Shown piece after piece: positions 17,245-22,011 of a DNA stretch of 64,000 nucleotides. The position numbers and the translations under genes were made by a program. The notes under the pieces are model-generated. The model worked only from the letters and a program-made list of their open reading frames with translations. It did no database searches and was not told where the DNA came from. Numbering within the stretch: position 1 is the first letter of the stretch; every line of letters starts with the position of its first letter. This stretch comes from Shigella phage SSG23. The stretch lies in the sequence record PQ351811; one strand, written 5' to 3'.

Positions 17245-17280
17245 AGCGAATAGCCTCACTCAATAAATACAGTATACAAA

Positions 17281-17314: not shown

Positions 17315-18040
17315 ATGTTTGATAAAGAATATTTCGAAGAACTCCGCGCTATTGCGGCGTCCGACGACAAAGAAGCACAGAAAACAGCTAAAACAGAATT
17401 AGCAGACTACGCAAAACAATTTGATATCAAGGTCAAAAAGACGCTCTCTCTAGAAAACATGATCGAGTTCGTAGAAACAGAATTAACTAAACTGGCGTCC
17501 GAAATGGAAGAAGAAACCCCAGCAGAAGGAACCAGTATTAACGACCTTATTCTGGCAGCAGACACCGCAGATGATAAAGTGGTATTCGACGAAGTTGATC
17601 CGTCTCTGGTTGAAGCAATGAAAGAACCTGAGATCGTCATTGAAGAAACAAAAGAAGAATCTCCAGCAGTTGAACCAGTGGTCGAAGAAGTTAAGTCAGA
17701 TGTTGAAGAAGCACCGGAAGTTAAAGTAGAATCTCCGGTAGCCAACATTTTCTCTGACGAAGCAGAGCATCGTTCTCCTGCGCATGACACTGATTCATTT
17801 TGCGATCTTACTGGTTTCCGTCCGACCATTTGTTTGATCGGTGGCGGTCGTGGTTACTACTCCTGCCCGTGGTGGATTTTCGACTGGATCGTTAATACTC
17901 CAGATTGGAAGAAGTATCCAGAACGTTTCCCGCACGCGTATGTACACGACACCCTCAAATCACTGATCTATTATATCAAACGCGATGGGTCTGTCAAGGT
18001 GCGAGAGACTAAACACAGCCAATTCCACACACTCAAGTAA
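17315..18040 (+). CDS. hypothetical acidic protein with Cys/Trp-rich C-terminus (241 aa)
   Basis: SD aggaga; acidic PxE-rich middle; C-terminal CDLTGFRPTICLIGGGRGYYSCPWW. Confidence 0.6.
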   Translation: MFDKEYFEELRAIAASDDKEAQKTAKTELADYAKQFDIKVKKTLSLENMIEFVETELTKLASEMEEETPAEGTSINDLILAADTADDKVVFDEVDPSLVEAMKEPEIVIEETKEESPAVEPVVEEVKSDVEEAPEVKVESPVANIFSDEAEHRSPAHDTDSFCDLTGFRPTICLIGGGRGYYSCPWWIFDWIVNTPDWKKYPERFPHAYVHDTLKSLIYYIKRDGSVKVRETKHSQFHTLK

Positions 18041-18119: not shown

Positions 18120-20660
18120 ATGTCTGATAAAATCAATATTTTACATCAAACTATGGGTCCGGTCTACGCGTCTGTAGGACATGAACTTGTTCTTAAGCTC
18201 GTAGTAAGTACCGCAGATTTTAAAGACTATATCGTAGAATGGAAGCTAAACGGTCAAAGCGTACCATCAGATCAGGTTGCAGAACCAGATCAATCTCTGT
18301 ATATTGCTGAAATGGCAGAAAATCAATTCGGCACATATACAGCGAAAGTTAAGCTGAAAGATAATCCGCTTGAATCGGTTGATATTAAGCCTATTCTTGT
18401 TGAACGTCGCACCTTCCTTGCGCCACATGATCAATCTCCGACCTACATTTACAAGCGGTTAGGCGAAGAATTGGATATTTTTGTTACTCCGTTTATCGAA
18501 GATGATAAAGAGTTTGATACTATTTGGTATAAAAACCATATTCAGTTAGATCAAAGCAAAATCCAACAAAAAAACGTGCATGTAGATCGAGTTGGTTATG
18601 AGGATTTTGGTAACTATACTTGTAAGGTATTTGTTACCGATGATGCACGTTCTCACTATTGGATCAGTCCTGTAGTAGTGGAACAAAATAAAGATGCTCC
18701 TAAAGTTCATATTCAGGAACATTACCCATCAGCGGTTACAGTGGCAGAGGACACGCGATTGGATCTTGAAGTGTCTGTTACGACCGACGACAAAACGCGA
18801 CCATTGTCTTACGTGTGGATTCATAATGACAGGATGGTACTGGATCAAGACGGGACCGCACTGATTATACCGCATGTTACAAAAAAAGATGAGGGTGTCT
18901 GGCGTCTTGAAGTTCGTCAAGCAGAAACTACGGTCTATTCAAAAGATTGTCATGTTACAATACAAGGACGAGCGTTTTTCCGCTTCACTAAACAACCACA
19001 ATCGTTAAATGTGGGTGCTGGTGCTTTAGGTTTGTTCAGTGTTGATTTTGCAACCAACTACGAACCGGTAAAAGTTCAATGGTACATCAAGAAAAATGGT
19101 GAAGATGAATTTAAACCAATTGTTGGCGCAACTAATAAAGATCTTCACATTACACCCGCTACGCAAGAATTAAATCAGGCGAAATATAAGGCTAAGGTGA
19201 CTTATGGTGATAATCAGGTCGCCGATTCAGCAGAAGCGGACCTTCTTGTAGGCGCAGCACCTACTATTAGAATCACTAAGCAACCACAACAGTTAAACAA
19301 TGTTCGAGTTAGTTCTTCACAAACTCTTATTTGTGAAGCAACAACTGATTATGAGCATTATAAACTTGATTATCAGTGGTATAAAAATAATGAGTTGATT
19401 CCTGGAAAAACATCTAAAACTTTGCATTTTTCCTCAATCACTAAAGCAGATGAGGGTCAATATAAATGTAGAGTTTCTATGGGTATTCAGAATCATCGAA
19501 TTACGGCGGATTCTAACGAAGTTCAGGTTACGGTAGACAACTCAAAGGCTAATCTTGAAATCACGGTACAGCCTAAAGCGGTAAAAGTTCGTTCGGGTGG
19601 ACAATGGTCGCTGACTATCACAGCAACGTCTAATGATGCTTTGCCAGTTCGTTACCGTTGGTTTAAAGATGGTGAGGATCTTTTCCCGGCAGGAATTGAA
19701 CAACGAAACGTATATGGCGAAGACCATGCACAATTAACATCTACTGGCGTTTATACATGCCGTGTATCGGCTGGATTCGGTGAACATCGAGTTTCTAAAA
19801 TGTCGGATGCTGTTCGTGTGCTGATCTCAGACGATGTAACGGTTGTTCCAAATGACCTAGAAATAACAACTCACCCACAAGATGCGCATGTAAAATATAA
19901 TGAAAAACTTATGCTACATGCTGCCGCACAAACATCTATTGGTATTAAACCATCATATCAATGGAAAAAAGACGGTGAGATTATCCCAGGTGCAAATTCA
20001 GATGTATTGATCATTGATCACGCAAAACCGTCTGACGTAGGCAGCTACACAGCGGTAATTACGGCGGGTGAGAATACCATTGAATCTAATCCTGCATTAG
20101 TGACCATGACTCATCATTCAAATATCAATATTCTGAAACATCCGGTGGATGTGGTTGCTAAAGAAGGTCAGAAACAGGATATTACCTTAGAAGCTCATGC
20201 CGAACACGTTGATGATGAAAAAGAAGTTCAATGGAAATGGCATAAAATTCAGGGCGGTAAGGATACTGTTATTCCTGGCGCGAATAGTAAGGTGTATACT
20301 ATTCCTAAAGAACAAATTAGCAAGAATGCACATCAAGCAACCTATTATGCAGAAATTACTGACGACGAAGGACATGTTAAACATAGTGAAAAAGTTCGTG
20401 TGGTGTTTACTACCGCGAAATTAAAACGCTATGTACACCCGATTCCGTGGCGTCGTACTTCGTTCCAGTATCAAGGCTATTGGGTACTTGATGAAATTGA
20501 CCGTTGCAACCGCGAAGGGCTTAACTGGCTTGAGGATTTTACCCACACCAAATATCCAGACGAGATCGAGACTATTGCAGCCTCGTTGCATCACTATTCT
20601 AATACTCATGTATTGGAATCTCGTAATGGTTATCTGGTTGATGGTACTCAACTATTTTAA
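18120..20660 (+). CDS. hoc: Hoc-like outer capsid protein with about 8 Ig-like domains
   Basis: repeating roughly 95-aa Ig-like units; C-terminal YVHPIPWRRTSF..ESRNGY module resembles the remembered T4 Hoc capsid-binding end. Confidence 0.8.
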   Translation: MSDKINILHQTMGPVYASVGHELVLKLVVSTADFKDYIVEWKLNGQSVPSDQVAEPDQSLYIAEMAENQFGTYTAKVKLKDNPLESVDIKPILVERRTFLAPHDQSPTYIYKRLGEELDIFVTPFIEDDKEFDTIWYKNHIQLDQSKIQQKNVHVDRVGYEDFGNYTCKVFVTDDARSHYWISPVVVEQNKDAPKVHIQEHYPSAVTVAEDTRLDLEVSVTTDDKTRPLSYVWIHNDRMVLDQDGTALIIPHVTKKDEGVWRLEVRQAETTVYSKDCHVTIQGRAFFRFTKQPQSLNVGAGALGLFSVDFATNYEPVKVQWYIKKNGEDEFKPIVGATNKDLHITPATQELNQAKYKAKVTYGDNQVADSAEADLLVGAAPTIRITKQPQQLNNVRVSSSQTLICEATTDYEHYKLDYQWYKNNELIPGKTSKTLHFSSITKADEGQYKCRVSMGIQNHRITADSNEVQVTVDNSKANLEITVQPKAVKVRSGGQWSLTITATSNDALPVRYRWFKDGEDLFPAGIEQRNVYGEDHAQLTSTGVYTCRVSAGFGEHRVSKMSDAVRVLISDDVTVVPNDLEITTHPQDAHVKYNEKLMLHAAAQTSIGIKPSYQWKKDGEIIPGANSDVLIIDHAKPSDVGSYTAVITAGENTIESNPALVTMTHHSNINILKHPVDVVAKEGQKQDITLEAHAEHVDDEKEVQWKWHKIQGGKDTVIPGANSKVYTIPKEQISKNAHQATYYAEITDDEGHVKHSEKVRVVFTTAKLKRYVHPIPWRRTSFQYQGYWVLDEIDRCNREGLNWLEDFTHTKYPDEIETIAASLHHYSNTHVLESRNGYLVDGTQLF

Positions 20661-20670
20661 TTAATTAAAC

Positions 20671-20694
20671 GCCGACCTTCGGGTCGGCTTTTCT
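20671..20694 (+). terminator. rho-independent terminator between hoc paralogues
   Basis: gccgacc-ttcg-ggtcggc hairpin followed by ttttct. Confidence 0.6.
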
Positions 20695-20709
20695 ATGGAG
20701 TGGCTTTAT

Positions 20710-21936
20710 ATGGCTTTCACAGTATCAATTAAATCAAACAAAAGATGTTTTCTTGCTGGAGATGGTTTCACATTAACAGCGACTGTAGCAGGTGACGAAC
20801 CATTACCCAGCAATTTGACCTATACATGGACAAAAGACAACAAACCGCATGAAAATAACACCGCTACGCTAACCGTAGAAGGTGCAACAAGTGAAAATGC
20901 GGGTAACTATAAAGTCACTGTACAAGATACCGACAGCGGGGAATCTGTAGAATCTGACGTTTTCCGCATGGAAGAAGCTGAATTAATCGTTAAGATCACC
21001 GAACCGCCGCAATTCTATGTTCCTACTCACACAGACGTAGAATTACACGCAACCGTCAAATTTTCTGGCGGGAAGACTCCAACAGACAACTATGAACTAC
21101 ATTATAGTTGGAGTAAGGGCGAAGAAGTTATAGACACAACACAGGATATCACGATCCAAGAATTTACAGCAGATAACAACGGTGTGTATACTGTAAAAGT
21201 ATGGGGAGAATCGGAAGATTCAGCCGATAGCGCATCGACTAAAATCATGCTAGCAACAATGAGCGTAGAACAGGATGTGGTGGCATCAAAGACCGTAGCA
21301 CTAGGTAAGGAGATCTTACTTAATTATGTTGTGTCAGAGGACATTGTAGGCGATTCTAGCGGTATGCCTAAATTGACTATCAAACATAACTGGTATTTGC
21401 AACGTGAAGGACAGCCGTCACCGACTCTGATCGGTAGTGAGGTCGGCGAAGCACTGGAAGGATTTTCTATCATGCCAGATGGTCATCTGTTCAAAGAGCG
21501 TGCTACTTACGACGATACAGCCAAATTCTGGTGTGTTGCTAAACTATATCAACAGATCGAAGACGCAACAGTAGAACTTGCAGCACGTACAAGCAGAAAA
21601 TGTTCAATGGAAGTTGTTGAATCTCTTCATAAAATGTTCCGTTATGTGCACCCGATCCCGTGGCGCAAAACTTCATTCATCTATATTGGATGGTGGGTAT
21701 TTGACGAGATTGTTAAATTCAATGAGGCTGGGTTAGAGTGGCGTCACCGAGAAGTTTATTCAACCAGCAAGTACGCCAAAGATCTGGAGACAATCGCGGC
21801 AGCGGAAGAAAAATATAGTGATTGCACTTGCATGGAATCTCGCAATGGTTTCATGTATCAGTCCAAAGAGTTCCATAAACTGGACCGAGAGACGTTAGAG
21901 CGAGTTCTACGCATTCGTGAAACGCCTCCTGCTTAA
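20710..21936 (+). CDS. hoc: Hoc-like outer capsid protein, T4-sized with 3 Ig-like domains
   Basis: MAFTVSIKS N-terminus resembles remembered T4 Hoc MTFTVDITP; C-terminal YVHPIPWRKTSF..ESRNGF; start moved from 20695 to ATG 20710. Confidence 0.85.
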   Translation: MAFTVSIKSNKRCFLAGDGFTLTATVAGDEPLPSNLTYTWTKDNKPHENNTATLTVEGATSENAGNYKVTVQDTDSGESVESDVFRMEEAELIVKITEPPQFYVPTHTDVELHATVKFSGGKTPTDNYELHYSWSKGEEVIDTTQDITIQEFTADNNGVYTVKVWGESEDSADSASTKIMLATMSVEQDVVASKTVALGKEILLNYVVSEDIVGDSSGMPKLTIKHNWYLQREGQPSPTLIGSEVGEALEGFSIMPDGHLFKERATYDDTAKFWCVAKLYQQIEDATVELAARTSRKCSMEVVESLHKMFRYVHPIPWRKTSFIYIGWWVFDEIVKFNEAGLEWRHREVYSTSKYAKDLETIAAAEEKYSDCTCMESRNGFMYQSKEFHKLDRETLERVLRIRETPPA

Positions 21937-21947
21937 TGAAATCTATC

Positions 21948-21973
21948 AGCCATCCTTCGGGGTGGCTTTTTTG
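21948..21973 (+). terminator. rho-independent terminator
   Basis: agccatcc-ttcg-gggtggct hairpin followed by tttttt. Confidence 0.65.
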
Positions 21974-21983
21974 TTTTTAGTGC

Positions 21984-22011
21984 TTGACAGCGTGATTTAG
22001 TGGCCTATAAT
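21984..22011 (+). promoter_or_regulatory. sigma70-type promoter
   Basis: ttgaca 21984-21989, 16-nt spacer, tataat 22006-22011. Confidence 0.6.

Follow-up and report, generated by a model that had tools for sequence, protein, structure and literature searches.

Tandem long and short Hoc genes at the inh-hoc locus of Shigella phage SSG23, and the remnant of the long gene in RB49-type phages

The window analysed here is a 64,000-nucleotide (nt) stretch of Shigella phage SSG23 (sequence record PQ351811), and its subject is a tandem pair of genes of the Hoc capsid-decoration family, a long one (hocL) followed by a short one (hocS). The 4.8-kb stretch of the locus shows 100% identity with PQ351812.1, the record of Shigella phage SFHK24, which is a Krischvirus of the RB49-like, "pseudo-T-even" kind, and comparisons below are made with the latter name. 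The gene order is uvsW (minus strand), inh, hocL and hocS (all plus strand); both hoc genes thus lie at the canonical inh-hoc locus, in the head-gene region beside inh that runs from uvsW to gene 24. Hoc serves as the standard scaffold in phage display and vaccine work and as the model of how phages adhere to mucus, and there is still debate on its natural role. The pair and its parts are as follows (all coordinates refer to the window).

18120-20660, plus strand: hocL, long Hoc of 846 amino acids (95.8 kDa, isoelectric point (pI) 5.8), composed of eight immunoglobulin (Ig)-like domains and a C-terminal capsid-binding module.
18120-20414, plus strand: the eight Ig-like domains of hocL, about 95 amino acids each (Pfam, pairwise similarity, AlphaFold2, Foldseek); approximate bounds D1 18120-18407, D2 18408-18692, D3 18693-18971, D4 18972-19256, D5 19257-19544, D6 19545-19835, D7 19836-20114, D8 20115-20414.
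20415-20657, plus strand: capsid-binding module of hocL, amino acids 766-846 (phmmer to T4 Hoc).
20671-20694, plus strand: intergenic UUCG hairpin, GCCGACC-TTCG-GGTCGGC (stem-loop 20671-20688), followed by a weak T tract.
20710-21936, plus strand: hocS, RB49-type Hoc of 408 amino acids (46.1 kDa, pI 4.9), orthologue of RB49 Hoc, with three Ig-like domains (about amino acids 1-303), a capsid-binding module (about 310-385) and a 25-amino-acid tail.

The longest open reading frame (ORF) of hocS starts at 20695; the true start was placed 15 nt later, at 20710 (MAFTV...), because this is the N-terminus of the crystallised construct of RB49 Hoc, to our knowledge the one Hoc for which a crystal structure exists. 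In the SFHK24 record hocL is labelled only "hypothetical protein"; in the record of phage JK32 both hoc genes are labelled "head outer capsid protein".

The C-termini of the two products are identical in 41 of 83 positions (49%; 69% positives; E = 3e-23), and the underlying 3' DNA is alignable from about 20428 in hocL and about 21641 in hocS, one run matching in 24 of 26 bases. Both proteins match phrog_1149 (Hoc; E = 9e-50 for hocL, 2e-78 for hocS) and also the Hoc-like phrog_14282 and phrog_11091. Against T4 Hoc (PDB 5VF3 and 8T1X), amino acids 770-844 of hocL align with residues 292-366 (phmmer, E = 4e-12) and amino acids 310-384 of hocS with residues 291-363 (E = 3e-13 for the whole protein). 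Residues 1-303 of hocS align without a gap to the three N-terminal Ig domains of RB49 Hoc (PDB 3SHS; E = 7e-176), and its N-terminus aligns with MTFTVDITP of T4 Hoc. A preliminary description of this DNA, prepared from the letters only, had put forward a module common to both C-termini and similar to the capsid-binding end of T4 Hoc, related 3' DNA, and a T4-sized second gene with three Ig domains and a T4-like N-terminus; the alignments bear all of this out.

The T4 Hoc residues in contact with the capsid protein gp23 are Y293, H295, Y304, W306, W309, W310, Q354 and Y360, adjoining the conserved ESRNG; Y293, H295, W309, W310 and ESRNG 355-359 are highly conserved in Hoc (PMC10385173). The equivalents are Y771, H773, F782, Y784, Y787, W788, L832 and Y838 in hocL (ESRNG at 833-837) and, in the same order, Y, H, F, Y, W, W, M and F in hocS, which also keeps ESRNG. 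Apart from the position of Q354, the contact residues are identical or replaced aromatic for aromatic, and the aromatic docking face and ESRNG are therefore kept in both proteins. It is very probable that hocL and hocS are Hoc-family genes and that both are functional.

All eight N-terminal segments of hocL match Ig-type Pfam models (Ig_3, Ig_2, I-set), D4 weakly and D8 in a PKD-like manner; the segments are mutually 23-36% identical with significant pairwise E-values. The AlphaFold2 model (14 orthologues as input; mean per-residue confidence, pLDDT, 80) contains eight beta-sandwich modules, and its best Foldseek matches in the PDB are multi-Ig ectodomains (contactin-2, Robo2, DSCAM Ig1-8) and titin. 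The count of about eight Ig repeats given for the first ORF in the preliminary description thus stands after domain parsing with Ig models, inter-domain similarity and structure prediction. Recent tandem amplification of the domains was considered and is ruled out by the 23-36% identity between them.

Homologues of hocL were collected by a word-indexed protein search and clustered at 90% identity; they come mostly from assembled sequencing runs. Thirteen orthologue clusters were obtained, all of 841-847 amino acids and 59-92% identical to the query, and intact hocL is present in five phage isolates (SFHK24, Brandy, JK32, UPWr_E1 and G2248). The ratio of nonsynonymous to synonymous substitution (dN/dS) of hocL is 0.09-0.15 in the 10 of 15 pairs with unsaturated synonymous divergence (dS), close pairs (dS 0.2-0.3) included; that of hocS is 0.06-0.17. 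No stop codon occurs in any of the six hocL alleles examined, and the strong ribosome-binding site, AGAGGA, is conserved. Neither gene is a pseudogene by these measures (dN/dS about 0.1, six hocL alleles intact), a state that the preliminary description had named among those that would speak against its proposal. hocL is always followed by a Hoc gene of about 395-411 codons, and the order inh-hocL-hocS is kept, in the five isolates and in three metagenomic contexts (four loci: L007, L016, L017/L018). Mean pairwise identity among 14 hocL orthologues is 91% in the C-terminal module versus 60-75% in the Ig domains, a pattern that fits an anchor, strongly conserved for a conserved capsid, bearing variable domains that would face outward.

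Among about 58 Krischvirus records only five keep hocL, and hocS is present in all 58. In Phi1, ECD7 and others the gap between inh and hoc consists of the 5' untranslated region of hocL, its ribosome-binding site, its first approximately 34 codons and, out of frame, its last approximately 110 nt; their identity to the window is about 88%. The deletion removed about 2.3 kb, and its junction lies at or beside a 7-nt microhomology, the two copies of which are found in the window at:

18216-18222, plus strand: GATTTTA, left copy (codon 33), left edge of the approximately 2.3-kb deletion.
20535-20541, plus strand: GATTTTA, right copy (codon 806), right edge of the same deletion.

A search with sequence from across the junction gave complete matches in 12 records (Phi1 type), and about 41 records (RB49 type) carry a further 75-bp deletion between CAGAA repeats; the same junction is common to about 53 records. 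From the shared junction and the frameshifted remnant it follows that RB49 goes back to an ancestor with both Hoc genes, from which one deletion and subsequent decay led to its present state. The intergenic hairpin is half-deleted in the remnants and no longer folds (-1.5 kcal/mol). The remnant ORFs phi1p168.1 (Phi1; L004, 3822-3986) and RB49p168.2 (RB49; L009, 1695-1892) are annotated as hypothetical, and the fragments form PHROGs of their own (phrog_19377 and phrog_32100); judged by the alignments, ORFs of this type are fragments of the deleted long hoc and not genes. The same comparison indicates that the two-Hoc pair is old and, for the RB49-like phages sampled, ancestral, with hocL later lost from RB49, Phi1 and most isolates. 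Two other assignments were considered in the course of this comparison: independent deletions behind the classes of 50% and 52% coverage were ruled out, ECD7, Phi1 and RB49 having one junction; G2494 as a third deletion state was ruled out, this record being of the RB49 type. In the literature searched, coverage of which was incomplete, no mention was met of hocL in JK32, Brandy or UPWr_E1, nor of the RB49 remnant; the loss of hocL recorded by a deletion remnant in RB49-type phages, the ancestral pair and the hoc divergence island described next are new here.

Nucleotide identity between G2248 and SFHK24 is 92-99% in the flanks and drops, with sharp edges, to 58-81% over 18200-22000, that is, over both hoc genes; the corresponding dS is about 2-3 for both hoc genes and 0.29 for inh. 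Between UPWr_E1 and SFHK24 the Inh protein is 100% identical and hocL and hocS are 67-69% identical (amino acids). In the JK32 pair dS varies among the hocL domains from 0.03 to 1.05, as in a mosaic. Mosaic dS and the sharp-edged island suggest recombination between hoc alleles; that the Ig domains of Hoc vary between closely related T4-like phages has already been noted (PMC10385173).

For the origin of the pair, an exhaustive HMMER scan for the Hoc module was run over 1.84 billion representatives, in place of a word-indexed query of 88 amino acids that had returned two fragments only. The module was found in 118 representative clusters (50% identity level), in proteins of 78-1,473 amino acids with about one to about fourteen Ig domains; an 8-Ig Hoc therefore falls within the known range. 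In the neighbour-joining tree the hocL and hocS clades stand side by side, with 13% bootstrap for the sister grouping (38 taxa, own distance code). The hocL module is 48% identical to that of hocS and 50-52% identical to those of three other lineages (P0042, P0043 and P0044); the closest relative of the hocS module outside the genus is that of Moonvirus CfP1 (50%). All hocL orthologues already have eight domains, and no recent expansion is visible. The event that gave rise to the pair, as read from these alignments, is at least as old as genus-level splits. Duplication followed by domain expansion, as given in the preliminary description, is possible and not demonstrated, the module phylogeny giving 13% bootstrap, the two modules being no closer to each other than that of hocL is to some modules of other lineages, and the Ig repeats being old.

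A tentative alternative for the origin, which we hold to be clearly the lesser chance and still a substantial one, is that hocL is a second hoc allele acquired by recombination from another T4-like lineage and kept beside the resident gene. The module identities just given would agree with this, since hocL is as close to P0042, P0043 and P0044 as to hocS and the match of hocS to CfP1 equals its match to hocL, as would the low bootstrap and the character of the hoc locus as a recombination hot-spot (divergence island, mosaic dS). On the other hand, the tree places the hocL and hocS clades adjacent, no donor lineage with a closer module was found among the 1.84 billion representatives, and the long and short modules of Serratia phage Muldoon are 70% identical, which means that duplication or conversion within a lineage does occur at this locus.

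The intergenic hairpin has a 7-bp stem (-14.7 kcal/mol, z = -3.6) and a weak T tract, TTTTCT. A GC-rich stem-loop lies between the hoc genes in all eight intact two-Hoc loci, and the stem sequences differ by compensatory changes (GCCGACC/GGTCGGC; GGTCGCCC/GGGCGACC; GACCGGCC/GGTCGGTC; AGCCAGTCC/GGACTGGCT; GCCCCC/GGGGGC). The T tracts 3' of these hairpins are short and interrupted across loci, and the hairpin is therefore read as a partial terminator or 3'-end stabiliser: it is probably one or the other of these elements on the messenger RNA, and could tune the ratio of hocL to hocS. Of the terminator hairpin that had been described at 20671-20694, the hairpin is thus real and conserved; a full terminator is unlikely, given the weak T tracts. 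The elements on either side of the pair are:

17262-17269, plus strand: candidate late promoter AATAAATA 46 nt before inh, differing in one base from TATAAATA, the late-promoter box of T4.
17315-18040, plus strand: inh, inhibitor of prohead protease (phrog_1051, E = 7e-77), conserved neighbour upstream of hoc.
21948-21978, plus strand: terminator that follows hocS, with a stem of 8 bp and a UUCG loop (21948-21967) and then TTTTTTGTTTTT, stronger than the intergenic hairpin.

The inh gene is 94-100% identical across the compared Krischvirus isolates. Muldoon carries an exact TATAAATA at the position equivalent to AATAAATA upstream of inh, and in contig L007 the gap from inh to hocL is only about 12 nt, too short to hold a promoter; the simplest reading would make inh-hocL-hocS one late unit. 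In scans for sigma-70 promoters and terminators the numbers of sites were not above those in shuffled sequence, save for the pair of hairpins described above and for two perfect matches to the sigma-70 consensus outside the hoc genes. One of the latter (TTGACA-N16-TATAAT, window 21984-22011, plus strand) lies directly after the hocS terminator and is probably an early promoter for small downstream ORFs; the other, of extended type (TTGACA-N16-TATAAT with TG, window 17997-17970, minus strand), lies in the 3' end of inh and is antisense, directed toward uvsW. JK32 has an additional hypothetical ORF of 1086 nt between uvsW.1 and uvsW (L002, 309-1394), which SFHK24, Phi1 and UPWr_E1 are without; it may be a mobile element, e.g., a homing endonuclease.

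The closest described arrangement is that of Serratia phage Muldoon, with a long Hoc of 1174 amino acids (10 Ig domains) and a short Hoc of 314 amino acids (2 Ig domains) (Fokine et al. 2023, Viruses 15:1517, PMC10385173). The order uvsW (minus), inh (plus), long Hoc, hairpin, short Hoc, terminator is the same, each protein has the Hoc module at its C-terminal end, and a GGGCC-UUCG-GGCCC hairpin occupies the same place between the two hoc genes. Muldoon differs in genus and in domain numbers (10 + 2 versus 8 + 3 here), and in the present genus the long gene is gone from most members; the 49% identity of the modules here, compared with 70% in Muldoon, makes the present pair much older or less homogenised. 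RB49 Hoc (PDB 3SHS) is the direct orthologue of hocS (about 90% identity), and T4 Hoc (PDB 5VF3, 8T1X) has the same capsid-binding module and Ig-string architecture as hocL and hocS; RB49 and T4 differ in having a single Hoc each, RB49 with only the frameshifted fragment of hocL. Enterobacter phage PG7 likewise has more than one Hoc-module protein in its genome, the module of the second being N-terminal and fused to a GDSL lipase (PMC10385173), whereas hocL and hocS are both classical Ig strings that carry the module C-terminally. An N-terminal Hoc module (residues about 8-76) followed by other sequence, similar to the PG7 lipase fusion, was also observed in metagenomic proteins P0082, P0083, P0115, P0141 and P0148; display of non-Ig cargo on capsids is possible for these. 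Proteins of the phage T5 pb10 type also show Ig-like domains from the centre of the capsid hexamer, with another capsid-binding domain, a single Ig domain and no tandem pair; hocS has weak sequence matches to the Ig-bearing decoration proteins 5LXK and 8ZVI. Slopekvirus KP27 (Klebsiella; L011, 4433-5252) has two very short adjoining Hoc-like genes, of 178 and 91 amino acids, at the same locus, which may be a split or degraded Hoc. Among some 1,370 phage records with a Hoc, about 200 match the module at least twice. A long and a short Hoc in one phage have thus been described before (Muldoon, PG7), and the pair itself is not surprising; it has also been suggested that the module serves to display more than one ligand on the capsid (PMC10385173).

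The explanation that we regard as best, with a probability of roughly 0.7, is that hocL and hocS are two functional tandem Hoc genes whose products share the hexamer sites of the capsid in a mixed short and long coat, the pair being ancestral and broken up by loss in RB49. The two genes would be expressed late, probably from one inh-hocL-hocS transcript, and the UUCG hairpin between them would modulate read-through or stability. The C-terminal module of either protein would occupy the middle of a gp23 hexamer, each hexamer taking one molecule, so that the two would share these positions or compete for them (a head of T4 size has 155). The four domains of T4 Hoc span 180 Å, and nine domains would by extrapolation reach about 400 Å; the coat would then consist of short fibres of about 18 nm, as in T4 Hoc, and long fibres of about 40 nm, which may act in adhesion (to mucus, glycans and cell surfaces) and in particle dispersion. 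Decoration of the same capsid by both proteins at hexamer centres is, taken by itself, likely. The mixed surface array that the preliminary description had proposed is thus a plausible reading.

Several observations weigh against this explanation. At the highly conserved W309 hocL has Y, a conservative change, and at Q354 it has L; 49% identity between the modules leaves room for differing affinities or site preferences; and hocL is less acidic (pI 5.78, with one basic domain, D5, at pI 8.0) than hocS (4.90) and than typical Hoc (about 4-5; PMC10385173). In the AlphaFold2 model of hocL, pLDDT is below 50 at 765-787 and 819-846, that is, in the C-terminal module, the fold of which is therefore deduced from sequence homology only. 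On the plus strand near the hoc genes no exact TATAAATA late-promoter box was found, only boxes with one mismatch. The literature search gave no expression, proteomic or structural data on hocL for any phage; for JK32, Brandy, UPWr_E1, G2248 and SFHK24 it gave neither virion proteomics nor a comment on Hoc, and the papers on JK32 and Brandy are silent on Hoc.

The same divergence of the modules would also accommodate a fixed partition, in which each module prefers its own class of hexamers (vertex-proximal versus mid-section, or cap versus body) or its own orientation, so that the two proteins hold separate sets of sites. Identity between the modules is only 48-49%, with differences at the T4 contact positions W309 and Q354; each is highly conserved inside its own orthologue group, and occupancy and orientation of T4 Hoc do vary with the position of the hexamer relative to the vertex (PMC10385173). 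Every hexamer, however, is made of the same gp23, and RB49 Hoc binds T4 capsids in vitro with a module identity of about 39% (PMC10385173), so that modules at such divergence can share a site; moreover, loss of hocL in RB49-type phages was not accompanied by any compensating change in their hocS module, which stays 96.5% identical. Such a partition is unlikely. Far less likely still is that hocL is dispensable, adds little or nothing to the SFHK24 virion and is heading for loss as in RB49. About 53 of 58 Krischvirus records, all of viable isolates, are without intact hocL, which bears on the dispensability of hocL and not of hocS, and T4 Hoc is non-essential in the laboratory (PMC10385173); but a dN/dS of about 0.11 even for close alleles, a frame intact in six alleles and 13 clusters of constant length, and the conserved AGAGGA site and downstream hairpin speak against a relic, and true remnants of the gene, with their frameshift and second deletion, decay rapidly, unlike hocL. 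A further proposal joins to the shared coat a history and a control: that the two-length coat is ancestral, that RB49 and most isolates are natural hocL knock-outs, and that the covarying hairpin sets the ratio of long to short fibres on the capsid; taken together, these points have a little less than an even chance.

With the assignment of hocL and of its remnants several database annotations are corrected. In the RB49 group the Hoc pair is conserved, selected and old, and in RB49 itself the ruins of the long gene are annotated as two "hypothetical proteins". Because culture collections contain close relatives of both kinds, carrying hocL or lacking it, one can test directly what a second, longer layer of fibres contributes to adhesion, dispersion, mucus host range and immunogenicity; if the two-length coat is indeed ancestral, SFHK24, JK32 or Brandy on one side and Phi1 or RB49 on the other would form near-isogenic natural pairs for the effects of Hoc fibres and of their length.

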